Origin: Acidimicrobiia bacterium
GTDB lineage: Bacteria > Actinomycetota > Acidimicrobiia > Spongiisociales > JAHEDJ01
Reading direction: 5' to 3'
DNA: 63,399 nucleotides
Assembly: GCA_029210695.1 (NCBI GenBank)
Contig: JARGFH010000015.1
Location: 1 to 63,399 of the forward strand
Shown piece by piece: positions 1,168 through 56,220 of this stretch; within the stretch, counting starts at the first letter, position 1; each line of letters starts with the position of its first letter. The position numbers and the translations under genes are program-made. The notes under the pieces were generated by a model. That model made no database searches, was not told the DNA's origin, and saw nothing but the letters and a program-made list of their open reading frames with translations.

Positions 1168-1308
1168 ATGAGCTCCGCCACCGTGAGCAACGCCGCCGTT
1201 CAGACGTTCGGCATCTCCAGGACATACGGACCCCTCACGGCAGTCGACCATGTGGATCTATCTGTGAAGAAGGGAGAGCTCTTCTCGCGGTTGGGTCCGA
1301 ATGGCGCC
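1168..1308 (+). pseudogene. N-terminal fragment of an ABC transporter ATP-binding protein
   Basis: ISRTYGPLTAVDHVDLSVKKGELFSRLGPNGA stops in the middle of the Walker A motif. Confidence 0.75.
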
Positions 1309-1900
1309 CGGCTCTGCGCTGTTGGAGTTGGGCAGCCTGGCGGGGCTGGAAATGTACGGCACGGCATCCAAACACAACCACGAACTCGTCTCGAACCTCG
1401 GAGCCACGCCGATCGACTACCGCAACGACGACTTCGTCGAGCGCATTCGCGATCTCACGGGCGACGCGGTGGATGTCGTGTTCGACCCCATCGGCGGAGC
1501 CCGCCAGCTATGGCGGTCCTACCGGACGCTGCGCAAGGGTGGACGCCTGGTTTGGTTCGGCGTGGCCGCCACCTCGAAAGCCGGGATGCGGGTCATCCCG
1601 GCGAGTCTGCTGACTCGTCTCGCGCTGGCGCTCATACCGGACGGTAAACACGCGCCGATGACCCCGACCGGTGGCGACCACGAAACTCTGAAGGGTCTCT
1701 TTGATGTGCTGGCGTCCGGAAAGATCCATCCGGTGGTGGCGGATCGCATACCGCTGGTTGAGGCTGCTCGTGCTCAGGTTTTGCTCGAACGCGGAGGGCA
1801 ACGCGGCAAGGTGGTACTCGTTGCCGATCCGGCGGGAGGGCTTCTCGGGTCGAAGTCGGCGGTGGTTGGAGCTGATTGCACCGGCACTGCGCCGGGTTGA
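1309..1900 (+). pseudogene. C-terminal half of an MDR / quinone-oxidoreductase-like dehydrogenase
   Basis: GSALLELG..AG..MYGTAS...LGATPIDY...VDVVFDPIGG...GKVVLV; the N-terminal domain and the start of the Rossmann motif are missing. Confidence 0.75.
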
Positions 1901-1948: not shown

Positions 1949-3001
1949 CTAGAGCTCCCCGAGCGACCGCAGGCGGCGCTGCTCGGCGCGAGAACCGGCC
2001 AGGATTACCTGGAAAACGGCCTCGGCCTGTTCGGGATCGAGGTCTTGCAGGACGGCTTCTTCCCGGATAATTGCCACGAGTTCCGCCTCACGGGCCGGTG
2101 AACGCACCGACATTCCGCGCTCGGCTTTTACCCGTCCGATCTGCAGGGCGAGATCGCGTCGACGGGACAACAGCCTGACGATGTCACGGTCGACCAGGTC
2201 GATGGCCTTGCGCATCCGGTTGATTCCGAGCGCCTCCATGAGGTGGGCGAACTCCGAAACGGCCAACTGACCGATGGCGTTGACGAGGGCAGCCTCGGGC
2301 GTCGGGTGGACCTCGACCGCCAACCCGTCGGCGCCGACGCCCTGCGCGGCCAGCGCCAGAGGCACGACTCGGGCGCGGCTTCCTGCCGAGTGGCTTGGCA
2401 GCACGATCACGGGCAGGTGGGTCCGTTCCTTGACGATCGGCACCGAACTGATATCCAGGGTGTCGCCATCGGCGAACGTCCGGATCCCGCGCTCACAGAG
2501 CACGACGTTGTCGTTTCCTTCGGCCAGGATGTACTCGGCGGCCCAGAGCCACTCGTCGATAGTGGCCGACGGCCCCCTCTTGAGCAGAACGGGGCGTTCC
2601 TGCTGACCGATCGCACGTAACAACTCGAAGTTCTGCATGTTGCCGGCGCCGATCTCGATCATGTCGGCCAATTCAGACGCCTCGGGAATGCCGGCGGGTT
2701 CGATGACCTGGGTGACGACCGGCAGGCCCACCGCATCACCCGCTGCTCTCAGCATTTTCAGCCCTTCACTACCGAGACCACGGAACTCATATGGCGATGC
2801 ACCGGCAACCGAGGTTCCGGCTCTCAGCATTGCCCCCCCGGCTGCCGCCACCGCCTCGGCAGTCTCTTTGATCTGGGCCTCGCTCTCGATCACACACGGC
2901 CCGGCAATGACCGGGAACGGATCATGACCGAAGCGCACAGAGCCGACCTCAACGACCGTGTTGGCTGCGCTGGAGTCGATGCGTTCTGCTTTGCGAATCA
3001 T
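1949..3001 (-). CDS. Type I-beta DAHP-synthase-like domain (degenerate active site) fused to a C-terminal AroQ chorismate mutase
   Basis: IAGPC, LLKRG, LCERG and EVHP motifs; C-terminal MRKAIDLVDRDIVRLLSRR...RVK...PARE...SRAEQ; ATG at 3001 preceded by GAAGGA. Confidence 0.88.
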   Translation of the reverse strand: MIRKAERIDSSAANTVVEVGSVRFGHDPFPVIAGPCVIESEAQIKETAEAVAAAGGAMLRAGTSVAGASPYEFRGLGSEGLKMLRAAGDAVGLPVVTQVIEPAGIPEASELADMIEIGAGNMQNFELLRAIGQQERPVLLKRGPSATIDEWLWAAEYILAEGNDNVVLCERGIRTFADGDTLDISSVPIVKERTHLPVIVLPSHSAGSRARVVPLALAAQGVGADGLAVEVHPTPEAALVNAIGQLAVSEFAHLMEALGINRMRKAIDLVDRDIVRLLSRRRDLALQIGRVKAERGMSVRSPAREAELVAIIREEAVLQDLDPEQAEAVFQVILAGSRAEQRRLRSLGEL

Positions 3002-3035
3002 GTGATGTCCTTCCGCCGGAAGGGCTCCAGATATG

Positions 3036-3061
3036 AAAAACCCGGAGCCGTGAGCTCCGGG
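3036..3061 (-). terminator. Intrinsic terminator of the attenuator
   Basis: Minus strand CCCGGAGC-TCACG-GCTCCGGG followed by TTTTT. Confidence 0.85.
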
Positions 3062-3086
3062 CCTGGTGATGGTGAATGCTGTCTTG

Positions 3087-3161
3087 CTAGTTGCGCGCAC
3101 CTTCGGCCCGGACACTCCGTCCGGTAAAACCGAAATACGCAAAGAAGACTCGTGATGTCAT
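3087..3161 (-). CDS. Phe/Tyr-rich attenuator leader peptide MTSRVFFAYFGFTGRSVRAEGARN (pheL-like)
   Basis: 4 Phe and 1 Tyr within 7 codons, followed by alternative hairpins and a terminator upstream of an aromatic-pathway gene. Confidence 0.85.
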   Translation of the reverse strand: MTSRVFFAYFGFTGRSVRAEGARN

Positions 3162-3276: not shown

Positions 3277-4125
3277 CTACCGGAGATGCTCGGACAGAAA
3301 CCCGAGGATTCGATGTATGTGCGGTTCGAAGGCATCGAGCGACGCATGGTCGGCACCTTCGACAAAGAGCGTCTCCGCGTCGGGAACCCGGCGGACCAGT
3401 TCCTCGAAGTGACGGGGCGTGACGGTCGTGTCGGCCCCGCCATGTACGAGCATGACCGGAGCGCTCACCAGCGCCACCCGCTCCCGTGGGGCGATGTCAT
3501 CGAAACGAAACCCGATTGTTCGTTCCATGGTCCGAAAGAGACCTCGCTGAACCGACCGTGGGAAGTGGCTGAACGGGGGACCTTCCGCCATGGCCTCACC
3601 CGGGTGAGCGAAGGCGGCCACGGACACGACCGCGTTGATTTGATCCGTTCGGGATGCAGCCAGGATGGCCGCGCCCGCTCCGACAGAATGGCCGATCACG
3701 CCGATCGATGAGACATCGGGTCTGCTTCGCAGCCACTCGATCGCCACGTCGAGGTCTTCAGCAAAGCGAGGCATAGAGACGAAGTCATCGTGTTCGCTCC
3801 TGCCGTGGTTCCTGGCATCCAGGAAGACCGCATGGAATCCGGCGCGATGAAGGTGGGGTGCCAGGGGCAGCATGAGCGAAGCGTTGCCGCCCCATCCGTG
3901 CAAGACGACGATCGCCGGCGCTCGACCGCCGGCCGGGATGAACCAGGCCTTCAACTCCGTCCCGGTTGCGCTGGCCAATGCAACCTCTTCCTCCGGGAGT
4001 CCGAGATCCGCGGGCGTGTGCGGCTGAGGTCTTTGTGGGGGAGCCAGAGTTCGCTTGAGGATCTCCGGCATGAGCCTCGCAACACCCACAACAAGCAGAG
4101 AGGGCAGCAGGAGACGTTTGAGCAT
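3277..4125 (-). CDS. Alpha/beta hydrolase
   Basis: LHGWGG, GHSVG nucleophile elbow, VHGGAD..V and ADH catalytic triad residues. Confidence 0.9.
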   Translation of the reverse strand: MLKRLLLPSLLVVGVARLMPEILKRTLAPPQRPQPHTPADLGLPEEEVALASATGTELKAWFIPAGGRAPAIVVLHGWGGNASLMLPLAPHLHRAGFHAVFLDARNHGRSEHDDFVSMPRFAEDLDVAIEWLRSRPDVSSIGVIGHSVGAGAAILAASRTDQINAVVSVAAFAHPGEAMAEGPPFSHFPRSVQRGLFRTMERTIGFRFDDIAPRERVALVSAPVMLVHGGADTTVTPRHFEELVRRVPDAETLFVEGADHASLDAFEPHIHRILGFLSEHLR

Positions 4126-8816: not shown

Positions 8817-11366
8817 TCATCGGCCGAGGAAAGCGTCCAGGCTGTCGCCTTCCCGCTGCCCGAGCGCCACCATGGCTCGCTGGAGTTCGAGTTTCTGTGC
8901 CAGCGACTTCGCCGCCACCGGAAACCCGGTCTCTGAGAAGAACGCTTCGACCCGTCTGGCCAGGCCGGGTTCAACCATGGCCGGCAGGCTGTGGACGAGA
9001 TATCGCTGAGTGGCAGGCGGGAGGAGGTCGGTCAGCGTCTTCCACTGCTCGGTCACCCTGGTCCAGATGTGGTCCATCGTCGACGGGTTTGCGAGCAAGC
9101 CGGCGATTACCCAGCCACCATCCTGGCCGCGAATGCGCCCGTCGAGCGCCATCTCGAACGTCCGGTCTGCGACATCGAGTCCGGGGAAGTAGGTGAGCGT
9201 TCGTAGGTAGCGCACCTGTTGCTGCGGATTCGTGGTCGACTCGTAGGCCTTGACGACCATCTCGTATTCGTCGACGGTGCCGTGTGAGGAGGCTATCGCC
9301 AGAACGGCGAGGGACACCTCAGCATCGATGATGGATGGATCTGCGACGACGTCGCGGAAGAGGCCTTTGGCTCTTTGGATCGTGTCGGCGTGCTTTCCGA
9401 GGCGCCCGTACGTGGCGAGGATCTGCCCGCGCAACCGGCGGGTCAGGTCGTCTTCGCCGGCGGCCGGTTCCCATCCGAGTCGTTCGGCAGTCGGTGCGAC
9501 GAGGCGTCGCACGAAGGCCGCAAACCGATTGTCGTTGGGAACGTACCGGCCCATCTCGAGCAGGTGCGTGGTCAGCATCTGCCAGACGGCATGCTCTCGT
9601 TCGTCACGGAAGGCCGCGGCCAGCCTGGCGAACTCATCGATTGGCACGGATCCCTCGACTGCGAACGCCCAGGTGTCGTCCAGGAGGGTGAAACGCTCGA
9701 GCGGATCGAGGTCGGCAAGCCGGGCCTGGAGTGCGCTCAGGAGCGTTGCTTCGTAGCGGACCCGATAGAAGCCGTGCCCGCCGGCGTTGACGATCGTCCA
9801 GTCGATGGGCTCGTCAAACGGAACCAACTCGGATTCGGCGACGAGCAGGTGCTTGACCGTCGATTCCCGGCCTGCGGCGCCGAATCGAATCTGCATCGGG
9901 ATCTGCCAGAGGTTGGCCGCCATGGGATCTTCCACGTAGCGGAACTGACGTTGCGTTAGTCGCAGACCGCCCTCTGCGCGTTCAACGCTCACTTCGGGAT
10001 AGCCGCCCTGGAGGATCCATGTATTCATGATGTCGCCGACACCGCCGTCCGAGGCGCTGTCGAGTCCTGTCCATAAGTCCTCGGTCTCGGTGTTGCTGTA
10101 GGCGTGGGCGCGCAGGTAGTTGCCGACGCCGTTGCGGAACGATTCCACTCCGAGGTATTGCTCGATCATCCGTAGAAGGGCGGCGCCCTTGCCGTAGGTG
10201 AGAGGATCGAACATCTCGTTCGCCTCGTCTGGCGAGCGAACCTCGAATTCGACCGCTCGTGTGCTGGCCAGAGCGTCGATGTCCATCGAGTCGGTTCGCT
10301 CTGCGCCGGGATCAACGGCAAACGCCAACCAGCGTTCCCAGTCGGGTCGGTACGACTCGACGGTCTTCATCTCCATGAACGAAGCGAACGCCTCGTTCAG
10401 CCAGATCCCGTTCCACCACTTCATCGTGACGAGATCGCCGAACCACATGTGGGCGAGCTCGTGGGCGATCACGTCCGCCACCCGGCGCAGTTCGTACTGG
10501 CCCGTTGTATTCGGATCGATGAGGACGGCGTTCTCTCGATATGTGATAGCACCCAGGTTCTCCATCGCGCCGAACGCGAAATCGGGAATGGCGACGAAGT
10601 CGACCTTGTCACCCGGGTAAGGGATCCCGTAGTAGTCCGAAAGCCAGCGGAGGGCGTAGGCGCCGATGTCGAGTGCAAAGTCGGTCAGATGACCCTTGCC
10701 GGGCGGGAATGCAACGCGAAGTGGTATTCCGTTGACATCGACGGGTTCGGTGACTTCGAGCGGCCCCACGATGAAGGCGACCAGATAGGTCGACATGACA
10801 GGCGTATCCGTGAATCGCACGACAGCCTTGCCGTCGCCGCCAGGCCTGCGATCCGCTTCCGACATGTTGGAGATGGCCGTCAGCTCTTCCCTGACGATCA
10901 GCGTGATTGAGAACACGGCCTTGAAGTCTGGTTCGTCCCAGCAAGGAAACGCCCGGCGAGCGTCGGCTGCTTCGAACTGGGTCGTGGCGATCACCTGCTC
11001 GCCACCGGAATCGTCGGTGAAGGTGCTGCGATAGAAGCCCCGCAACTGGTCATTCAGGGTGCCGCTGAAGGACAGGTGAAGTGCCCACTCGCCCGCTTCG
11101 ATAGGAGTAGGTGGCGTGATGGTGATTCGCTCGTTGGGCTCGTCGTAGCCGACTGTTGCGTGACGGGGAATCCCGTCTCCGCCCACGAGTGAGGCGGCAT
11201 CGATATCGAGCTCGATGGCGTTCAGCGTGAGCGTTTCGAGCGGCTCGATGACGTCGATCGTCACGATCTCCGTACCTGTGAACGACGAGTTGGAGATGTC
11301 CGGCTCGAGGGTGAGGTCGTATCGACGCGGGAAGGCTGTGCGGGGAAGTCGGTGTTCGGTCGACAC
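8817..11366 (-). CDS. pepN: M1 family aminopeptidase with ERAP1-like C-terminus
   Basis: GAMEN, HELAH(x18)E and YGKG motifs. Confidence 0.93.
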   Translation of the reverse strand: MSTEHRLPRTAFPRRYDLTLEPDISNSSFTGTEIVTIDVIEPLETLTLNAIELDIDAASLVGGDGIPRHATVGYDEPNERITITPPTPIEAGEWALHLSFSGTLNDQLRGFYRSTFTDDSGGEQVIATTQFEAADARRAFPCWDEPDFKAVFSITLIVREELTAISNMSEADRRPGGDGKAVVRFTDTPVMSTYLVAFIVGPLEVTEPVDVNGIPLRVAFPPGKGHLTDFALDIGAYALRWLSDYYGIPYPGDKVDFVAIPDFAFGAMENLGAITYRENAVLIDPNTTGQYELRRVADVIAHELAHMWFGDLVTMKWWNGIWLNEAFASFMEMKTVESYRPDWERWLAFAVDPGAERTDSMDIDALASTRAVEFEVRSPDEANEMFDPLTYGKGAALLRMIEQYLGVESFRNGVGNYLRAHAYSNTETEDLWTGLDSASDGGVGDIMNTWILQGGYPEVSVERAEGGLRLTQRQFRYVEDPMAANLWQIPMQIRFGAAGRESTVKHLLVAESELVPFDEPIDWTIVNAGGHGFYRVRYEATLLSALQARLADLDPLERFTLLDDTWAFAVEGSVPIDEFARLAAAFRDEREHAVWQMLTTHLLEMGRYVPNDNRFAAFVRRLVAPTAERLGWEPAAGEDDLTRRLRGQILATYGRLGKHADTIQRAKGLFRDVVADPSIIDAEVSLAVLAIASSHGTVDEYEMVVKAYESTTNPQQQVRYLRTLTYFPGLDVADRTFEMALDGRIRGQDGGWVIAGLLANPSTMDHIWTRVTEQWKTLTDLLPPATQRYLVHSLPAMVEPGLARRVEAFFSETGFPVAAKSLAQKLELQRAMVALGQREGDSLDAFLGR

Positions 11367-11529
11367 GATACTCCTGGATGCGGTTGGGCGGCCCTCAATG
11401 GTAGCCGTGACCTTACGGACCGGGCCAGGCGGACGCGGCCGCCCAGGAGATGGGCGCCCCGGCGGTTTATCCCTTCCTTAACCTGCCCTTGCCGTCCCGT
11501 TTGCGTGCTGTGCCGTACCGTTGACTCAG

Positions 11530-11652
11530 AGGTTGTGGTGTGATGCCGCAGGTAGGGAGTGACCGCCCTCCTGAGACCTCCTTGGAACGTTCGACGGCGG
11601 TGGTCCCCAGCCTCCCCAAGTTGCACCGCCGTCGAACGTTCCCCTTCTTCCT
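11530..11652. ncRNA. Candidate small RNA with a perfect 19-bp hairpin and a C-rich loop (strand uncertain)
   Basis: GGAACGTTCGACGGCGGTG (11584-11602) pairs with CACCGCCGTCGAACGTTCC (11624-11642); several CCTCC motifs; lies in a ~410-bp intergenic gap. Confidence 0.4.
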
Positions 11653-11775
11653 GAATGAATCGTCCGCCTTCGCCGTGTCCATTTACTCGGATTAGCGCCG
11701 AAGGGCGGGGTCTAGCCGCGGCGCATTTGTTTGACGTCGCCTGCTCATGGGAGAAGCTCCTAGAACCGGTGCGAA

Positions 11776-13284
11776 CTACGCGTCGTACGTCCCAGCCGTG
11801 GTGTCTCCGCCCCGGCCGGTCCAGTTCGTGTGGAAGAACTCGCCGCGCGGCCGGTCGTTCCGTTCGTAGGTGTGTGCTCCGAAGTAGTCGCGCTGGGCCT
11901 GGATCAGGTTGGCGGGCAGCTGCTCGGTTCGGTATCCGTCGTAGAACGCCAGCGCCGTCGAGTATGCAGGGACCGGAATCCCGTGTGACACGGCGGTGGT
12001 GATGACCGTGCGCCATCCTGACTCTGCTCGAGCGAGGGCAGCAGCAAAGAAGTCGTCCAGCATCAGGTTGGCGAGGTGTGGGTTTCGGCGGAAGGCGGCG
12101 GTGATGTCGTCGAGGAAGGCTGCGCGAATTATGCACCCTTCGCGCCACAGGGAAGCGATACGCCCGTAGTCGAGGTCCCAGCCGTGCTCTTCGGCGGCGG
12201 CGCGCAGGAGCATGAAACCCTGAGCGTATGAGACGATCTTCGACGCGTAGAGAGCGTCGCGGATCGCAGTGATGAAGAGGCTGCGCGGGCCTGCGCCACC
12301 ATCCTCGTTGTCGGCGGAGTTGGAGGTGTTGCGCAAGTCCGTCTCGTCGATCGACCCGGAACTGGAGCCCAACTGCCCGGCCGCGGCAACTCGCTCTTCC
12401 TTGAGGGCGGACAAGATCCTGGCAAAGACGGCTTCGGCAACGAGGGTGACCGGCATGCCGAGATCGAGGGCCGCGGTCGCCGTCCACTTGCCGGTGCCCT
12501 TTTGCCCGGCGGCATCGAGGATTCGCTCGAGCAGCGGTTCGCCCAGTTCATCTCGATACCTCAGGATGTCGGCTGTGATATCAATGAGGTAGGAGTCGAG
12601 TTCCCCTTCTCCCCACGACTGGAACACTGAGCTCATCTCGTCGTGGTCCATACTGAGGCCGGCCTTCATGAGGTGGTAGGCCTCTGCGATCACCTGCATG
12701 TCTCCGTATTCGATGCCGTTGTGCACCATCTTCACGAAGTGACCTGCACCATCCGATCCAACCCAATCACAGCATGGTGTGCCGTCTTCCACTTTGGCCG
12801 CCACCGACTGGAACATCTTCCGGACGAAGGGCCAGGCTTCCTTGCTCCCGCCGGGCATGATCGAAGGGCCGTTCCTCGCCCCTTCCTCCCCGCCCGATAC
12901 ACCCGTGCCGATGAACCGAAAGCCGCGTTCTTCCAGGTAGGCCGTCCGGCGAACTGTGTCGGAGAAGTGCGAGTTACCCCCATCGATGATGATGTCACCT
13001 CGTTCGAGGAGGGGGAGCAGTTCCTCGATGACCGTATCGATCGCGCTTCCCGCTTTGATCATCAACATGACCCGGCGCGGGGTGGCCAGGGTGCCCACCA
13101 GCTCCTCGAGGGAGTGCGTGCCGATCACATTCGTTCCGGCGGCCGGTCCGGCGATGAACTCGTCGACCCTTGAAGTCGTTCTGTTGAAAACCGCCACCAC
13201 GTAGCCGTGGTCGTCCATGTTCAGAACGAGGTTCTGCCCCATGACGGCGAGGCCGATGAGGCCGATGTCTGCTGTGCCGGGCAT
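11776..13284 (-). CDS. gnd: 6-phosphogluconate dehydrogenase (decarboxylating)
   Basis: [23 protein letters not shown] and [20 protein letters not shown]. Confidence 0.97.
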
Positions 13285-41739: not shown

Positions 41740-41801
41740 CCCGCGACCCGCGACCCGTAACTCTGGGCCTATTGCCTATTGCCTATTGCTATCTTCTCTT
41801 T

Positions 41802-42884
41802 GTGCCCCGATTCCGCTCTGATCTCGACCAGATCGTCCCGTACACACCGGGCAGGTCGATCGAAGAGGTGGCTGCCGAGTCGGGTATCAGCGACATCGCC
41901 AAGCTCGCTTCCAACGAATGCCCTTTTGCTCCATGTCCCGAAGTGATCGAGGCAATGGCCGTGGCCGGTGGCGGCGTCAACCGCTATCCGGACAACGATC
42001 AGCGAGCCTTGCGGGCGGCCACCGCCGAACACCTCGGCATTCCAGAGGATCACCTCTGGTTTGGTGGCGGGAGCTCCGACCTGTTGCGTTCGATCGGGCT
42101 GGCGATGGGCGGATCCGGCACATCGGCGGTGTGTGCGTCGCCTTCTTTCGTTCTCTACCGGATCGTCACCCACATCGCCGGTTCAGAACCACTCGAGGTC
42201 CCACTGACGGATACCTGGGTCCATGACCCGCAGCGACTCGTCGAAGCGGTTCGGGAGGACACCACCCTGCTGTATTTGTGAAATCCCAATAATCCGACCG
42301 GACCCCACCTGCCGGCCGAGGATGTGCGATTGATCATCGATCAAGTGCCCGATCGAGTCCTCATCGTGGTAGACGAGGCCTATCTGCACTACGCGGGCGC
42401 CACCGATTTCTCTACCGCAATTCCGCTGGCGCTCCAACGCGACAATGTGGTCGTTACGCACACATTCTCCAAGGTCTACGGATTAGCCGGGCTGCGGGTC
42501 GGATACGCGGTCGGGAGGCCTGACACGCTCCGCTCGCTGCGCAAGACCCAGGCACCGTTCCCGGTCACGGCGATCGCCCAAGCAGCCGCGGCTGAAGCTC
42601 TCAACCATCAGGACCGGGTTTCTGCCCGGGTGGCCCACAATGAGCGCGAACGGGCACGTATGATCGGGGCGTTCGAGCGGCACGGAATCGAGTTCGCCAC
42701 CAGCCAGACGAACTTCATATTTCATCGTTCGCCGAACCGGGCGTCGGAGTTCATTTCCCAAGGTGTCATCGTCCGACCGGCAGTCGACGGATGGGTACGC
42801 ACAACGGTTGGCCTGGACGGCGAGAACGACCGGTTCCTGGCCGCGCTGCATGCTCTCCAATCCGCCCGCCGAGATTTCGCCTAG
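41802..42884 (+). CDS. hisC: Histidinol-phosphate / aromatic aminotransferase with an in-frame UGA at 42279-42281 (recoded or pseudogene)
   Basis: KLASNE, NRYPD, L*NPNNPTG, DEAY and TFSKVYGLAGLRVGY; ORFs 41772 and 42324 share one frame. Confidence 0.85.
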
Positions 42885-49325: not shown

Positions 49326-50840
49326 ATGCACGTGACGATCGACGGCGGACCTCTTTCGATTGACGAAGTGGTGGCGGTTGCGCAAGGCCGCGCCGAGGCA
49401 GTCCTCCATCACGAGGTCCGGGCCCGAATGCTTCCTGCCCGCGACGTCGTTGAGAAGGCAGTGGCCGAGGATCGGACGCTGTACGGAGTCACGACCGGCT
49501 TTGGTGCTCTCGCCTCCAAGCGGATAGACCCGGCCGAAGCCGAGGATCTCCAGGTTCGGCTGCTTCGCTCGCACGCCGCCGGTGTCGGCGATCCACTTCC
49601 CGATGAGCTCGTTCGATCCATGTTGCTCCTGCGGGCCAGGACGCTGGCCCAGGGCCACTCTGGTGTGCGCCCTGTCATCGTCGAGCGCTACATCGAGTTC
49701 CTGAGGGAAGGCCTGTTGCCGGTTGTGCCATCTCAAGGATCGGTGGGAGCGTCCGGTGACCTCGCTCCGTTCGCTCACCTGGCCCTCCCGATCATCGGCG
49801 AGGGCTACCTCAAAGATGGCGATCAGATCGAGCCGGCCGCTCGCGTGCTGGCGAGACACGGCTTGGCGCCGATCCGGCTCCGCGCCAAGGAGGGCCTCAG
49901 CCTTCTGAACGGCACCGAGGGCATGCTGTCGTTGGGTGTGCTGGGCCTCCATCGAGCCCGTCTCCTGGCACTCGCCGCCGATCTGGGAGCGGCGCTCTCC
50001 ATCGAGGCATTGAAGGGGAGCTCCCGTCCGTTCCGGCCCGAGGTCCATGCCCTGCGCCCGCACCCGGGCCAGATCGCCTCGGCGGCACGGATTGCGGGGC
50101 TGCTGGAGGGATCCGGCATCGGGCGGAGCCATCAGGACGATTTCGTGCATGCTGTGCAGGATGCCTACAGCCTTCGTTGTGCGCCGCAGGTGCACGGGGC
50201 GGTGTGGGACACCCTCGACCACGCCGGGGAAGTGTTCGGTCGCGAGTTGGGCGCGGTCGTCGACAATCCGATTGTGTTTCCCGAGACGGGCGAGTTGATC
50301 TCAGCGGGGAACTTCCACGGCCAGCCGCTGGCGTTTGCTCTCGACTTCCTCACGATTGCAGTGACGGAACTCGCCAACATCTCAGAACGGCGCACCGACC
50401 GGATGCTCGATCCCGAGCGTTCGTCCGGTCTACCGGCGTTCCTCTCGCCCCGACCCGGCCTCAACTCGGGGTACATGCTGCTCCAGTACACCGCCGCCGC
50501 CCTCGTGGCAGAGAGCCGCGTGCTGAGCCATCCCGCCTCGGTAGAGTCCATTCCCACCTCCGGCAGTCAGGAAGATCACGTGTCGATGGGCTGGGGTGCC
50601 GGTCGCAAGCTCTGGCAGGTGCTCGACAACATCAGCCGGGTCCTGGCGGTTGAGATCCTCTGCGCGGTGCAGGGCATCGAGTATCGCCGGCCACTCGAAC
50701 CGTCCGCCCGGGTGGCGGTCGTCGTCCGGAAGGTCCGTGAGGTAGTTCCAACCCTCGAGGATGATCGGGTGCTGTCGGATGAGATCGAGGCGGTTGCAGC
50801 CATGATCGAGCGCGGCGACCTCACCCGCAATCTTGCGTGA
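49326..50840 (+). CDS. hutH: Histidine ammonia-lyase
   Basis: YGVTTGFG, MIO motif GASGDL, QDAYSLRC and GNFHG. Confidence 0.96.
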   Translation: MHVTIDGGPLSIDEVVAVAQGRAEAVLHHEVRARMLPARDVVEKAVAEDRTLYGVTTGFGALASKRIDPAEAEDLQVRLLRSHAAGVGDPLPDELVRSMLLLRARTLAQGHSGVRPVIVERYIEFLREGLLPVVPSQGSVGASGDLAPFAHLALPIIGEGYLKDGDQIEPAARVLARHGLAPIRLRAKEGLSLLNGTEGMLSLGVLGLHRARLLALAADLGAALSIEALKGSSRPFRPEVHALRPHPGQIASAARIAGLLEGSGIGRSHQDDFVHAVQDAYSLRCAPQVHGAVWDTLDHAGEVFGRELGAVVDNPIVFPETGELISAGNFHGQPLAFALDFLTIAVTELANISERRTDRMLDPERSSGLPAFLSPRPGLNSGYMLLQYTAAALVAESRVLSHPASVESIPTSGSQEDHVSMGWGAGRKLWQVLDNISRVLAVEILCAVQGIEYRRPLEPSARVAVVVRKVREVVPTLEDDRVLSDEIEAVAAMIERGDLTRNLA

Positions 50841-50848
50841 CAATCGGG

Positions 50849-52053
50849 CTTGAGTTCAGGTGGTGAGCGCGACGGGGTGTCCTCATGGAGGTGAGGTATG
50901 GTCCGTCCGAAGACTCCTTGGCGTGTGGCGCGTGTTGCGCTGCTGGCGGTTGCCCGGGGGGCGACCATTGGGGATGCTGCTGTGGTGGCGGGGATCAGTC
51001 CACGCACGGTGGACAGTCTGGTCGATGAACATGGCCGGATGTGTTTTCGTGATAGAACCCGCGGGTTTGACGCGTTGACCCTCGCTGATCGTGAAGAGAT
51101 CCGTGTCGGGATCGATCGCAGAGAGTCCAACGAACAGATCGGGAAGCGAATCGGGCGACACCGTTCAACGGTGTGGCACGAGATCAAGGTCAACGGGGGC
51201 CGTGACGTGTATCGGGCGTTCGCCGCCGAAGAGCGTGTCTGTGATGCGGCGTTGCGTCCCCGCCAAGGCTGGACCGAGACCCGTCCCGAGCTGTGGGAAG
51301 AAATCAAAGACCGGCTGCGCGACTATTGGTCGCCGCAGCAGATCGCTGCGACGCTTCGCAAAGATCACCCCGACGATGAACAATGGTGGGTGTCGCACGA
51401 GTCGATCTATCACGCCATCTACGTCCAGGCCAAGGGCGAGCTGCGTAAGGAACTGGCTGCCTGCCTGCGTTCTGGCCGGTCGAAGCGGCAGCCGCAGAGC
51501 CGGATCAACACCGGGCAGGGCAGGATCAAAGACATGGTCAACATCTCGCAACGCCCTCCAGAGGCCGACGACCGTGCGGTTCCGGGCCATTGGGAAGGCG
51601 ACCTGATCATCGGTGAGGCCGGCAGGTCCCAGGTCGGCACCGTCGTCGAACGCTCCACCCGTTACGGGCAGCTCATCAAACTCGCCGACCGCACCGCACC
51701 ACACGTCGCCGACAGGCTCGTCGACATCATGGGGCGGCTCCCTGACCGGCTCGCCCGTTCACTGGCCTGGGACCAAGGCGGCGAACTCGCCCACCATGCG
51801 TCGTTCACCGTCGCGACCGATATCGACGTCTACTTCTGCGATCCCCACTCGCCATGGCAAAGAGGCAGCAACGAGAACTGGAACGGCCTCGTCCGCCAGT
51901 GGCTCCCCAAAGGCACCGACCTCTCCGTCTACACCCAAAACGAACTCGACGAGATCTCAAGACTGTTGAACACACGACCCAGAAAAACGCTCGGATGGGA
52001 CACCCCAGCCGAGCGATTCAACCAACTCGTCGCGCAGACCATTTGAAACCGCC
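50849..52053 (+). mobile_element. IS30-family insertion sequence
   Basis: Imperfect ~27-bp inverted repeats (50849-50875 and 52027-52053) flanked by GGG on both sides; transposase inside. Confidence 0.88.
50898..52046 (+). CDS. IS30-family transposase
   Basis: WSPQQIA, SHESIY, GHWEGDL, WDQGGE and [14 protein letters not shown] triad intact. Confidence 0.96.
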
Positions 52054-52136: not shown

Positions 52137-53147
52137 ATGCCAACTCCAGCGCACGAGACCGCCCCCTTCGGCGCGGTATTTGCCGACAAGATGGCACTCA
52201 GCAGATGGGACGGAGAACACTTCGAGGAGCCGCGGCTCGAACCGGTCGCCCCGCTCCCGATCCACCCTGCCGCCCATGTGCTCCACTACTCGAGTTCTGT
52301 GTTCGAGGGTCTCAAGGCCCATCGCGGTGTCAAGGGCGATCTGCGTCTGTTTCGTCTCGACCGGCATATCGAGCGGATGCAAGCCAGTGCCCGGTTGCTC
52401 TACCTTCCACCTCCGGACGGGCCGCTCCTGGAGCGCATGATTATCGCGGTGGTCGATGCGGCCAGGGAGGCCATTCCCGAACCGCCTGGTTCCCTCTATC
52501 TGCGCCCGACCCTGGTGGGCACCGAGGCCAACGTCGGAGCCGCCGCCTCGCCCAGCAAGGAGGCGTTGCTCTATGTGCTCGGCTCGCCGGTCGGCGACTA
52601 CTTCTCCGGGGGGATCCGTCCGCTCAAGGTGGTGGTAGAGGCGCACCGTCCCCGGTCGACACCATCCTTCGGCATGGCCAAGACCGGCGCCAATTACGCG
52701 TCCGCCCTGGGGCTCATCATGGAGGCCAAACACACACACGCCGCAGACCAGGTCTTGTTCGCTCCCGGCGGCGATGTGCAGGAGACCGGCGCCGCCAACT
52801 TCATTCTGCTCGACGACGACCGTGTGCTGACCAAATCCCTCGACCCATCCTTCTTGCCCGGCGTTACCCGTGATTCCGTTCTCGTCATAGCTCGAGACCT
52901 CGGCTACGAGGTGATCGAGGCCGACTTCACCATCGACGAAATGCTGGAGTTCGCCGAGCGCGGCGAGGCCGCTCTCTCGGGCACGGCTGCTGTGCTGGCC
53001 GGCGTCGGCACCATCCTGCACGCGGGCAAGGAGCACAAGGTAGGGAGCGGGGAAGTCGGGCCGAACACCCTGCGCCTTCGTGCCGCCCTCACTGCTCTCC
53101 AGACAGGCGTGGCGCCCGATATCCACGGTTGGATCCGCACGGTCTAG
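52137..53147 (+). CDS. ilvE: Branched-chain amino acid aminotransferase
   Basis: LHY...[25 protein letters not shown] and GTAA; SD GGGAGG. Confidence 0.92.
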
Positions 53148-53211
53148 CTCGTCCGGCGGTCGATTGTCTATCCCTCCGAGTAGCGTGAGGGTGAGCAATC
53201 GAGAGGCTGAC

Positions 53212-54870
53212 ATGAGCGGGCCACGCGCCATCCGGGCTCCACGCGGAACCGACCTGTCGACCAAGGGCTGGCTACAGGAAGCCGCCCTGCGGTCGCTGAT
53301 GAACAACCTCGACCCGGAGGTAGCCGAGAACCCGGATGAACTCGTCGTGTATGGAGGTCGGGGCAAGGCAGCCCGCAACTGGGATGCTTTCGACGCCATA
53401 GTGCGCACGCTTCGCTCGCTTGAGAACGATGAGACGATGCTGGTTCAGTCGGGGAAACCGGTCGGAGTGTTTCGCACCCACGAGATGGCACCGCGAGTGC
53501 TGATCGCCAACAGCCTGCTCGTTCCCGATTGGGCCGACTGGGAGCACTTCTGGGATCTCGAAGCGGCCGGCCTCATGATGTACGGCCAGATGACGGCAGG
53601 GTCGTGGATCTACATAGGCACGCAGGGAATCCTCCAGGGAACGTATCAGACGTTTCTGGCGATCGCCGAGAAGCGTTTTGGAGGTTCGCTGAAAGGCACC
53701 CTCACTCTCACGGCGGGGCTCGGTGGGATGGGCGGTGCACAGCCGCTGGCCGTCACCATGAATGACGGTGTCGTGTTGTGCGTCGAGGTCGATCCGATCC
53801 GAATCCAGCGGCGGATCGAGACCGGATATCTCGATGTGGCCGCCGGATCGCTCGACGAGGCGATGGCCCTGTGCGAGTCGGCTGTACGCGAGAAGAGGAA
53901 GCTCTCGGTCGGCATCGAGGGAAATGCTGCTGACGTATTTCCTGAGCTCCTTCGGCGCGACATCGCATTCGACATCGTCACCGATCAAACCTCCGCCCAC
54001 GATCCGCTCAACGGGTACATTCCCCGCGGCTACGACCTGGAGACGGCTGCCAAGCTCAGGAGCGACGATCGGGATCGTTACATCGCCGAGGCCAGGGACT
54101 CGATGGCGCGTCACTGCGGGGCGATGGTCGGATTCCTGGAACGCGGCTCAGAGGTGTTCGATTACGGCAATAACCTGCGCGGCGAGGCGAAGTTGGGCGG
54201 CTTCGAGAACGCGTTCGCCTACCCCGGTTTTGTGCCCGCCTACATTCGCGATCTGTTCTGCGAGGGGATGGGCCCGTTCCGCTGGATAGCGCTGTCCGGG
54301 GACCCGGCCGACATCGCCGCCACCGACCAGGCACTGATCGACCTGTTCCCCGAGAACCGCGGCTTGCATCGCTGGATCGAGATGGCTCGCCAGCGGGTCC
54401 ACTTTCAGGGACTCCCCGCCCGGATCTGCTGGCTCGGCTACGGCGAGCGGGACAGGGCGGGTCTCGCCTTCAACGAACTGGTTCGCACGGGGAAGGTGGC
54501 CGCTCCGGTTGTCATAGGGCGCGATCACCTCGATTCCGGCTCGGTGGCCTCCCCGTATCGGGAGACCGAGGCGATGGCCGACGGATCCGATGCCGTGGCC
54601 GATTGGCCGATTCTGAATGCTCTACTCAACACGGCGTCCGGGGCCGCCTGGGTGGCGGTTCACCATGGTGGTGGGGTTGGAATGGGAAAGTCCATCCATG
54701 CCGGGGCGCAGGTGGTGGCCGACGGCACCGAGGAAGGCGCGCTACGACTCAGCCGCGTCCTCACCAATGATCCGGGGACCGGAGTCATGCGTCACGTGGA
54801 TGCCGGCTACCAGCGGGCGAAGGACGTTGCCAAAGAGCGGGGCGTCGGTATCCCGATGCTCGAGGGATAG
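53212..54870 (+). CDS. hutU: Urocanate hydratase
   Basis: [29 protein letters not shown] and GRDHLD. Confidence 0.97.
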
Positions 54871-54873
54871 ACC

Positions 54874-56220
54874 TTGGCACGCCGCGTTTGTAGCTTCTGC
54901 GAGAAGCCCGAAGACGAGGTAGCCCATCTCCTCGCCGGACCCAGTGGTGTCGCCATCTGCGATGAGTGCGCCGAACTGGCAGTGGAGATCACCGGTGACC
55001 ATGCGTTCGAGCAGACCTCGGGCGATCTCCTCATTACCGGCATCGATCGCATCATCACCAACGACCCACGGCTCGACGGGCCCATTGGGGAGGGCGCCAT
55101 TGCCGTCCGCAACGGGCGGATCACGTGGATCGGCCGGGAGCAAGACCTTCCATCGAGATATCGCGAGATAGTCACCCTCGAGTGCGGAGGTCGAACGGTC
55201 TTGCCCGGCTTTGTGGATGCCCACACCCATCTGGTGTTCGACGGGGACCGGGCGGATGAGTTCGGTCAACGTATGCGGGGGGCGAGCTACAAAACGATCA
55301 TGGCGGCCGGCGGCGGTATCCAGGCGACGGTCAGGGCGACCAGGGCAGCCGGGCCGGATCGTCTGCTCGAGGTGTCGATGGCACGAGCCGATCGGATGCT
55401 GTCGCTCGGTACGACCACGGTCGAGATCAAGTCCGGATACGGACTCGAGACGCTCACCGAGCGTCACATACTGGAGGTAGCTGCCGAGATCGGGAGCCGC
55501 CTGCCGCTCGACGTGGTGTCTACGTTCCTCGGAGCTCACGCCGTTCCGGATGAATACCGGTCGGATCGGGACGCCTACCTGTGGCTGATCGAGGAGGAGA
55601 TGCTGCCCGCGGTTGCCTCCATCGCCGAGTACTGCGATGTGTTCTGTGATGCCGGGGTATTTTCTGTCGACGAGGCGCGCCGGGTGTTGGCGGCCGGGCG
55701 CAGGCACGGATTGCGTCCGCGGCTCCACGCCAATCAGCTCGGCGACACGGGCGGGCTCGAACTGGCGGTCGAGGTCGGTGCTGTTTCGGCCGACCACCTC
55801 GAGCACGTCTCTGAACGCCAGGCTTCCTATCTGGCAGATGCCGGTGTCATCGCGGTGCTCCTCCCTGCGGCCTCGCTCTCGTTGCAGTCCGCTCAGGCTC
55901 CGGCCCGGTTGTTGCGAGATGCAGGGGTGACGGTCGCCCTGGCGACGGACTGCAACCCGGGAACGTCGAATGTTGAGTCGATGCAGTTCGTCGTTGCCCT
56001 GGGCGCCATGGAAATGGGTTTGACGGTGGAGGAGTCGATCTGGGCGGCCACCCGCGGCGGAGCTCTGGCCGTCGAAGAACCAGACAAGGGATGGCTGCGG
56101 GTAGGTGCAGTGGCCGACCTGCACGTGCTCGATACGGACAACTATCTCGATCTCGCCTACCGGCCGGATCGGCCCTGCACCTGGAAGGTGGTCAAAGACG
56201 GCCGGGTCGTCGTCGGATAG
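54874..56220 (+). CDS. hutI: Imidazolonepropionase with an N-terminal ClpX-type C4 zinc finger
   Basis: CSFC...AGP...ICDEC followed by PGFVDAHTH, EIKSGYG, SADHLE and ATDCNPG. Confidence 0.92.
   Translation: MARRVCSFCEKPEDEVAHLLAGPSGVAICDECAELAVEITGDHAFEQTSGDLLITGIDRIITNDPRLDGPIGEGAIAVRNGRITWIGREQDLPSRYREIVTLECGGRTVLPGFVDAHTHLVFDGDRADEFGQRMRGASYKTIMAAGGGIQATVRATRAAGPDRLLEVSMARADRMLSLGTTTVEIKSGYGLETLTERHILEVAAEIGSRLPLDVVSTFLGAHAVPDEYRSDRDAYLWLIEEEMLPAVASIAEYCDVFCDAGVFSVDEARRVLAAGRRHGLRPRLHANQLGDTGGLELAVEVGAVSADHLEHVSERQASYLADAGVIAVLLPAASLSLQSAQAPARLLRDAGVTVALATDCNPGTSNVESMQFVVALGAMEMGLTVEESIWAATRGGALAVEEPDKGWLRVGAVADLHVLDTDNYLDLAYRPDRPCTWKVVKDGRVVVG

Follow-up and report, generated by a model that had tools for sequence, protein, structure and literature searches.

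An apparently dead DAHP synthase barrel fused to an intact chorismate mutase in a class-wide family of Acidimicrobiia

What does a protein do when it is recognized as a 3-deoxy-7-phosphoheptulonate (DAHP) synthase (DAHPS) fused to a chorismate mutase (CM), but its synthase half has lost residues that hold the substrates? This question is raised by a gene from an Acidimicrobiia bacterium (GenBank assembly GCA_029210695.1, contig JARGFH010000015.1), which we studied in a window of 63,399 nucleotides, the whole stretch of DNA that was analyzed. The focal gene lies on the minus strand and consists of 350 codons and a TGA stop, with zero frameshifts or internal stops, as an earlier reading made from the DNA letters alone (hereafter, the sequence-only reading) had described for the barrel. 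Comparisons with homologs give good support to the view that its product is a catalytically dead DAHPS barrel, kept for a non-catalytic reason and fused to an intact mutase. They also show that this combination of dead barrel and mutase is a class-wide family, not the oddity of a single strain.

The ATG start of the gene (3001..2999) is backed by a Shine-Dalgarno-like sequence and by the N-termini of all full-length homologs, which led us to drop a longer open reading frame (ORF, 3142..1949) starting at a TTG. Pfam places the DAHP_synth_1 domain (PF00793) at residues 22-255 (3.3e-62) and the CM_2 domain (PF01817) at residues 264-342 (2.1e-18, positions 1-79 of 80 in the profile). The order of the domains within one polypeptide, barrel then CM, is confirmed by Pfam and by the structural model described below.

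The barrel was aligned residue by residue to the solved type I-beta DAHPS 1VS1, 4GRS, 5J6F, and 1ZCO, with E-values from 1.6e-77 (1VS1) to 4e-74. In enzymes of this type, whose numbering is approximately that of the window protein, the metal is bound by C36, H206, E232, and D243, phosphoenolpyruvate (PEP) by R60, K65, S119, R120, K141, and R171, plus Q116, and erythrose 4-phosphate (E4P) by R67, T68, and D243 (PMC6362186). Among these, R67 and T68 contact the phosphate of E4P, and R120 that of PEP. Every change that the sequence-only reading had listed in the KPR(T/S), IGARN, DPSH, and ALSD motifs is seen against the four structures (Table 1). Moreover, Gln116 is replaced by Glu and the RTFE..TRxTLD loop is shorter by 2 residues. 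The window protein retains 6 of the 12 tabulated ligand residues (Cys36, Arg60, Lys141, Arg171, His204, and Glu230) and has lost Lys65, Arg67, Thr68, Gln116, Arg120, and Asp241. The barrel is recognized by hidden Markov models (HMMs) of DAHPS and by its fold, yet it fails the features of functional I-beta DAHPS, namely KPR(T/S), the Arg of G(A/S/T)RN, and the four metal ligands.

In the CM domain, the residues R, R, K, R, E, S, and Q sit opposite positions 11, 28, 39, 51, 52, 84, and 88 of the 1ECM chain. The corresponding residues of the Escherichia coli enzyme (Arg11', Arg28, Lys39, Arg51, Glu52, Ser84, and Gln88) are those that we take to form its active site, and all seven equivalents named by the sequence-only reading are identical in this alignment. 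Equivalents of R11, R28, K39, R51, E52, and Q88 are found in all 81 sequences of the family set defined below, and that of S84 in 78 of them. Three CM helices are predicted by AlphaFold2 (AF2) at residues 248-294, 302-318, and 323-347. The model is that of a monomer; AroQ mutases dimerize.

Table 1. Features of the focal gene, in window coordinates, with the evidence for each.
Feature	Coordinates	Strand	Evidence
Whole gene, putative pseudo-DAHPS barrel and AroQ chorismate mutase	1949..3001	-	ORF, Pfam, NCBIfam, N-termini of homologs, Shine-Dalgarno sequence
Shine-Dalgarno-like GGAAGGA, 6 nt 5' of the ATG	3008..3014	-	Direct sequence reading
Type I-beta DAHPS-like (beta/alpha)8 barrel with degenerate active site, residues 1-259	2225..3001	-	Pfam, PDB alignments, AF2, Foldseek, dN/dS
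Former LRGGAFKPRTSPY loop, now LRAGTSVAGASPY, residues 59-71: Lys65Val, Pro66Ala, Arg67Gly, Thr68Ala	2789..2827	-	PDB alignments
Former IGARN, now IGAGN, residues 117-121: PEP-binding Arg120 to Gly	2639..2653	-	PDB alignments
Former DPSH, now LPSH, residues 201-204: Asp201Leu, metal-ligand His204 retained	2390..2401	-	PDB alignments
Former ALSD, now ALVN, residues 238-241: metal/E4P ligand Asp241 to Asn	2279..2290	-	PDB alignments
AroQ (CM_2) chorismate mutase domain with complete active-site set, residues 260-350	1952..2224	-	Pfam, 1ECM alignment, secondary structure

Are these substitutions an accident of one genome? A word-indexed protein search gave 7276 matches at E<=1e-20 among 8000 scored candidates, and the closest tier (P0003-P0011, 80-92% identity) carries the same substitutions as the window protein. 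The former KPRT loop reads VAGAS in all 8 full-length close homologs (80-89% identity). None of these 8 keeps KPRT. The sequence-only reading had named the retention of KPRT in close homologs as what would refute it, by showing simple decay in this strain, and the comparison thus turns out in its favor. The next tier, at about 58-64% identity, is also devoid of KPRT and of the GARN Arg, with different replacements (FKQGSS, FRSPSS, YKSGSS, TTADGSS). One scan of species-representative genomes, using as a query the alignment of 23 such proteins, matched 479 stretches, of which 458, from as many species-level genomes, encode relatives. The patterns of the scan (DEWLW[AS]AE and MQNFELLR) are signatures of the family, and the count measures the family rather than DAHPS in general. 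We then used a set of 81 sequences, made of the window protein and those of the best 80 of the 458 loci (56-97% identity); where a taxon is named, these 80 are all metagenome-assembled genomes of Acidimicrobiia or Actinomycetota. The Arg of KPRT is absent from the 80 genomic relatives and from an independent set of 118 representatives of protein clusters, so the loss is not the decay of a single strain.

The barrel also evolves as a constrained domain. We computed the ratio of nonsynonymous to synonymous substitution rates (dN/dS) by the Nei-Gojobori method over 128 pairs at 78-99.5% identity, from which 5 saturated pairs were dropped, leaving 123. Relative to L001, the closest locus, at 97% identity, the dN/dS of the barrel is 0.032 (dS 0.44) and that of the CM domain 0.065; relative to L002-L004 that of the barrel is 0.054-0.076, and for CM the values span 0.043-0.068 over L001-L004. 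The medians over the 123 pairs are 0.071 for the barrel and 0.068 for CM, with dS among the compared pairs reaching about 1.3. Hence, the barrel is under strong purifying selection (0.03-0.08), equal to that of the CM domain; purifying selection in homologs sharing the substitutions was a check suggested by the sequence-only reading. The mean column entropy is even lower in the barrel (1.14) than in CM (1.31). These results leave practically no room for the idea that the gene is a pseudogene in decay, or that errors of assembly or sequencing in one genome produced it, for which only the unusual motifs themselves would speak: the frame is open and preceded by a Shine-Dalgarno sequence and an ATG, the same substitutions are present in the independent assemblies of L001-L004 and in P0003-P0009, the dN/dS is low, and relatives occur in hundreds of species. 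We therefore rejected strain-specific decay and artifact. As a clear homolog of an enzyme that lacks substrate-binding residues and is retained under purifying selection, the barrel has the attributes of a pseudoenzyme, as far as these can be told from sequence.

The conservation of the former ligand positions is informative on what the barrel may have become. Among the 81 family sequences, the canonical Arg67 is never found, Pro66 and Arg120 are found in 7 each, Asp241 in 9, Lys141 in 20 (it is Arg in 40), Lys65 in 37, Asp201 in 46, Cys36 in 57, His204 in 63, and Arg171 in 66, and only Arg60 and Glu230 are present in all 81. None of the 118 representatives of protein clusters has Arg67, Gln116, or Arg120, and the number of ligand residues kept per member ranges from 2 to 8 out of 12, in a graded way across lineages. 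In one lineage, the Spongiisociaceae-type loci, Cys, His, Lys141, and Arg171 are all lost together. Positions 65-68 and 241 are highly variable, at the 77th-93rd entropy percentile of the barrel. There are 11 positions fixed specifically in the family (3, 27, 29, 126, 153, 192, 219-221, 262, and 345), none of which is a former ligand position. The junction between the domains has a conserved LG..R.R motif, in which L258, G259, and R264 are invariant in the 81 sequences.

One could imagine from these patterns that the barrel no longer turns over substrates but is now an allosteric sensor. Its remnant pocket would be occupied by a metal, by PEP or some other metabolite, or by both, and would signal this to CM through a continuous helix made of alpha8 and H1, tuning the synthesis of prephenate. 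The clade of the window protein does retain Cys36, His204, Glu230, Arg60, Lys141, and Arg171, two of which (Arg60 and Glu230) are invariant in the family, and the VAGAS loop is conserved in its 8 full-length close homologs. Furthermore, helix 248-294 crosses the conserved junction in the model, and the occupied DAH7PS site of the Prevotella nigrescens enzyme (PniDAH7PS) alters its conformation and feeds forward to CM (PMC8408635). However, the pocket is variable family-wide, notably at Cys36, His204, and Lys141, one lineage has lost four of its residues at once, and the fixed positions lie elsewhere. Since the pocket residues are not conserved across the family, no single ligand is sensed family-wide, and we regard the sensor as unlikely. 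A clade-specific sensor in the group of the window protein, where three metal and three PEP ligands are kept, is possible; in its boldest version, the remnant metal/PEP pocket of this clade would read a signal from central carbon metabolism or from the pathway and gate prephenate synthesis. The sequence-only reading had proposed a pseudoenzyme scaffold or sensor regulating the mutase. Of this, the dead barrel kept for a non-catalytic reason is well supported by the comparisons, and a role in regulation or sensing is conjectural. The variation of the former ligand positions between lineages leads us to favor a scaffold or activator over a sensor shared by the whole family.

Intact relatives served as controls. 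An exhaustive HMMER search against 1.84 billion cluster representatives gave 8068 matches at E<=0.001, of which the best 150, representatives of clusters at 50% identity, were examined. Arg67 and Arg120 are both kept in 141 of these 150 superfamily representatives, and Arg120 in 145. The exceptions are two members of the family (P0125 and P0199), three KPST variants that have Arg120, the proteins P0243, P0254, and P0270, and one fragment. The closest canonical protein, P0123, has 51% identity with the window protein and is also a barrel followed by CM. When used as a query, it retrieves a group of intact fusions (P0272-P0308) that are 62-78% identical to it, one of which is named 'Actinobacteria bacterium' in its source. 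In 38 canonical sister DAHPS-CM fusions, Lys65, Pro66, Arg67, Gln116, Arg120, Lys141, and Asp241 are each 100% conserved, and all 12 ligand residues are kept in the 8 canonical sister fusions examined for them.

These controls bear on the possibility that the barrel is still an enzyme, either a non-canonical DAHPS or one neofunctionalized for other, e.g., non-phosphorylated, substrates. Three metal ligands plus the Asn at the fourth position remain in the window protein with three PEP ligands, its HMM scores pass the cut-offs of equivalog models (see below), another DAHPS was not seen in the window or in the scanned flanks, and strong purifying selection is also expected of an enzyme. Yet, both phosphates have lost the residues that held them, as shown above for Arg67 and Arg120 in both sets of relatives, and no conserved replacement took their place, the positions 65-68 and 241 being among the most variable of the barrel. 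The surviving ligands differ between lineages, unlike what one new chemistry would produce, and the canonical relatives are invariant precisely at the seven positions listed for the 38 sister fusions. We thus consider a surviving or novel catalytic activity of the barrel improbable.

The P0123 query also retrieved DAHPS-CM fusions that do not belong to the family and show degeneracy of other kinds: P0309; P0313 and P0316; P0314; P0317 and P0318; P0319, P0322, P0323, and P0329; and P0321. Their motifs read, for example, GPGAIES and LQVGSEQ, or LRAGTFRAETSPY, IEVGPDN, and DPAP. To judge from these sequences and from P0243 (see below), barrels linked to CM seem to have lost DAHPS residues repeatedly.

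We built a tree of the barrel regions with 106 rows, 27 of which are family members (<80% identity) and 79 representatives (alternate ones, together with nine that were forced in), after taking out 13 columns of former ligands. It was inferred with the 'quick' setting of IQ-TREE and midpoint-rooted, with support given by the Shimodaira-Hasegawa-like approximate likelihood ratio test (SH-aLRT). The 27 family rows and P0125 form a single clade (SH-aLRT 92), whose sister is the canonical fusion P0123 (97). This position of the family, one clade sister to an intact fusion, is compatible with one loss in an ancestor that was already fused and with later erosion specific to each lineage; the root, placed at the midpoint, and the order of events are provisional.

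The predicted structure is consistent with a barrel that lost residues and not its fold. The AF2 model, built from an alignment of 126 sequences, has a mean predicted local distance difference test (pLDDT) of 92.3 and a predicted template modeling score (pTM) of 0.77. Eight strand-helix units are predicted in the barrel, which Foldseek superimposes onto 1VS1 with a TMt of 0.94 and a root mean square deviation of 1.2 A; the TIM-barrel fold is thus predicted to be intact. The confidence dips at the former KPRT loop (83 for residues 61-70), the beta6-alpha6 loop (81 for 171-180), and the junction (71 for 261-270). The helix at 248-294 is modeled as a single one that spans alpha8 of the barrel and helix 1 of CM. 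Two stretches invariant in the family, MQNFELL and DEWLWAAEY, are in beta4-alpha4 and in beta5-alpha5/alpha5. An AlphaFold3 model of the Porphyromonas gingivalis enzyme (Pgi) places these elements at a barrel-barrel interface (PMC12202928), and the mapping of the two stretches to this interface, which depends on an approximate numbering offset of 10 residues, is a lead.

Taken together, we find it probable that the protein is a monofunctional CM in which a DAHPS-derived barrel acts as a non-catalytic scaffold or activator. The catalyst would be the C-terminal AroQ domain, which would turn chorismate into prephenate, presumably in the dimeric state that is usual for AroQ. The barrel would descend from an active type I-beta DAHPS that was already fused to the mutase. 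The residues binding E4P and the phosphate of PEP would have been lost in the ancestor of the Acidimicrobiia family, which would no longer make DAHP with this protein. The comparison of active sites suggests that DAHPS activity is absent and CM activity present; the dependence of CM on the barrel is proposed by analogy. The barrel would persist since the mutase needs it for its quaternary structure and its affinity for the substrate, as in the active fusions of Prevotella and Porphyromonas. Splitting the domains of PniDAH7PS weakens both activities (PMC8408635), and the isolated CM of PgiDAH7PS-CM has a Km of 207 against 19 uM (PMC12202928, Table 1). If the ancestor was like Pni/Pgi, the catalysis of the barrel would have become dispensable once DAHP came from elsewhere, but the deletion of the barrel would have crippled the only mutase.

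Several observations weigh against this interpretation. Of the four metal ligands, the window protein still has three (Cys36, His204, and Glu230), along with the PEP ligands Arg60, Lys141, and Arg171. With 6 of 12 ligand residues in place, the barrel may still bind ligands to some extent, or have an activity that is weak or changed. Two NCBIfam equivalog models score above their cut-offs: TIGR01361 ('DAHP_synth_Bsub') with 303.7 bits for a cut-off of 267.75, and NF009239 ('bifunctional DAHPS/chorismate mutase') with 321.5 for 279. In addition, the isolated PgiCM keeps its kcat (1.02 vs 1.12 s-1; PMC12202928), hence the dependence on the barrel is moderate in Pgi, and a similar dependence may not alone explain a dN/dS of 0.03-0.08.

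The favored scenario further supposes that DAHP is supplied by another enzyme, encoded at some other place in the genome; as in other Actinomycetota, this would probably be a DAHPS of type II. Our searches around the gene give it no help. There is no second DAHPS or aromatic-pathway gene among the 46 ORFs of the window, and no such gene among the 28 representatives of conserved neighbor clusters in the flanks of the 80 loci. The flanks hold 1139 ORFs, 165 of which are 400-520 aa long; these 165 have 73 representatives, and the 70 that we scanned again include no DAHPS or other gene of the aromatic pathway. The three left aside are the focal ORF, the ORF antisense to it, and one that had been scanned already, and ORFs of other lengths were scanned where they fell in large clusters. 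A PF00275 match located 2 kb from the gene in L074 was considered as an EPSP (5-enolpyruvylshikimate 3-phosphate) synthase and rejected, as it is MurA (TIGR01072 488 bits, while aroA has 72 bits for a cut-off of 287).

The interpretation of this family matters for annotation. The public name of the family members that we saw is '3-deoxy-7-phosphoheptulonate synthase', and P0316, from a degenerate lineage outside the family, is named 'bifunctional ... /chorismate mutase'. The equivalog models still pass, and the family is routinely mislabeled as a bifunctional enzyme, as which the window protein should not be filed. On the most daring reading, that of a covalent counterpart of the mycobacterial activation complex (see below), hundreds of genomes annotated with an I-beta DAHPS would get no DAHPS step from the focal gene, published pathway reconstructions, including those of sponge symbionts, would need to be re-examined, and DAHPS may be missing altogether from some of these organisms. 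The family would also be a natural experiment in enzyme entrenchment, in which one of the two activities of a fusion disappeared, but the domain that had carried it could not be discarded. It bears on the origin of allosteric or scaffold modules from enzymes, where it complements the cases of Bacillus, in which CM is the accessory, and of mycobacteria, in which an active DAHPS activates a weak CM.

The genomic context of the gene was compared across loci, with flanks of about 10 kb per side; the ORF caller recovered the focal gene in 67 of the 81 loci. A gene encoding Lgt is present in 49 loci, and in 37 of them it is directly upstream on the same strand. The genes of CtaB, of cytochrome c oxidase subunits I-IV (COX1-4), and of CtaG are common nearby. 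Given this conserved synteny of Lgt, CtaB, and cytochrome oxidase genes, the focal gene belongs to the core genes and has been inherited vertically. Its conserved surroundings are of the housekeeping kind, and also encode aminopeptidase N, a Na/Ca exchanger, and 6-phosphogluconate dehydrogenase. In the window, an alpha/beta hydrolase (4125..3277) holds the upstream slot where other loci have Lgt. In the gap between CtaB and the focal gene (1168..1900, plus strand), an ABC ATPase, of which an N-terminal stub is left from 1168 on, runs into a fragment of an alcohol dehydrogenase. The latter (1301..1900) is the C-terminal part of a zinc-type alcohol dehydrogenase/quinone oxidoreductase, matched by Pfam ADH_zinc_N_2. 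In L001, the same gap (11163..12717) is about 1.55 kb long and has two intact ORFs of 375 and 240 aa, and the positions 1309..1851 of the window have no counterpart there. The gap in the window looks like the scar of a replacement or deletion.

Further away in the window, a transposase-like ORF (50898..52046, plus strand), with HTH_38 and an rve integrase core, lies between a histidine/aromatic ammonia-lyase (49326..50840) and a urocanase (53080..54870), and apparently interrupts a hut gene cluster. The urocanase is adjoined by an amidohydrolase (54874..56220, plus strand), which is probably the imidazolonepropionase of the hut pathway and bears at its N-terminus a C4 zinc finger of the ClpX type (PF06689, residues 5-39, 2.4e-15), an unusual fusion. 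Finally, an ORF at 42324..42884 (plus strand) matches a class I/II aminotransferase over its C-terminal half only (positions 179-360 of the 361 of the profile), and the one that precedes it (41772..42281, plus strand) has no Pfam match. An aminotransferase gene may have been split or frameshifted in the region 41772..42884.

How does the family compare with known systems? We found no description of an inactive DAHPS barrel fused to CM in Actinomycetota in the full-text literature, a search outside which were subscription-only papers and supplements. The only related remark that we found in print is one sentence in PMC1173090 on a tri-domain protein of the Shewanella type, AroQ-PheA-AroA(I-beta), whose DAHPS part is degenerate. 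It gives a precedent for an I-beta module that has degenerated while attached to a CM-containing protein, but there the barrel is C-terminal to a P-protein and belongs to a different clade. P0243, a 680-aa protein with CM_2, prephenate dehydratase (PDT), and DAHP_synth_1 domains in which QPDS replaces KPRT, has the same CM-PDT-DAHPS architecture and can probably be linked to the Shewanella type. P0126 shares the architecture of P0243 and keeps the canonical motifs.

The AroQ-DAH7PS proteins of Bacillus, Listeria, and Geobacillus (3NVT, 5J6F) combine the same two families, and one of their domains is mainly a regulatory accessory (PMC8408635). Their barrels are 45-48% identical to that of the window protein. 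However, in the Bacillus type the N-terminal CM is the prephenate-sensing accessory and the barrel is the catalyst, whereas the window protein has the opposite domain order and, judging from its residues, reversed roles. In the same phylum, the MtCM-MtDS system of Mycobacterium tuberculosis and Corynebacterium uses a DAHPS barrel as an activating platform for a small AroQ mutase (PMC7762937, PMC4281200). It associates an AroQ-delta CM with an active type II DAHPS in a non-covalent way, while the window protein has a dead type I-beta barrel, linked covalently, as the putative activator of its mutase. That we are dealing with a covalent, dead-barrel counterpart of the mycobacterial activation complex is a tentative and somewhat doubtful proposal.

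In logic, the mycobacterial pair is the nearest to the window protein; in architecture, the closest likeness is with the DAH7PS-CM of P. nigrescens and P. gingivalis, which have, like the window protein, a type I-beta barrel followed by an AroQ CM and a similar length. In these proteins, CM reaches its full efficiency only with the barrel attached, and there is communication between the domains (PMC8408635; PMC12202928). P0140, at 40% identity, is a probable relative with the Pni/Pgi architecture, and P0123 is the intact actinobacterial one. The abstract of the Pgi paper calls DAH7PS-CM specific to periodontal pathogens (PMC12202928), a statement outside which fall the actinobacterial DAHPS-CM groups, both intact and degenerate. 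The difference lies in the active site: Pni and Pgi are truly bifunctional, with measured DAH7PS kinetics, whereas the window protein has Lys65, Pro66, Arg67, Thr68, Gln116, Arg120, and Asp241 replaced.

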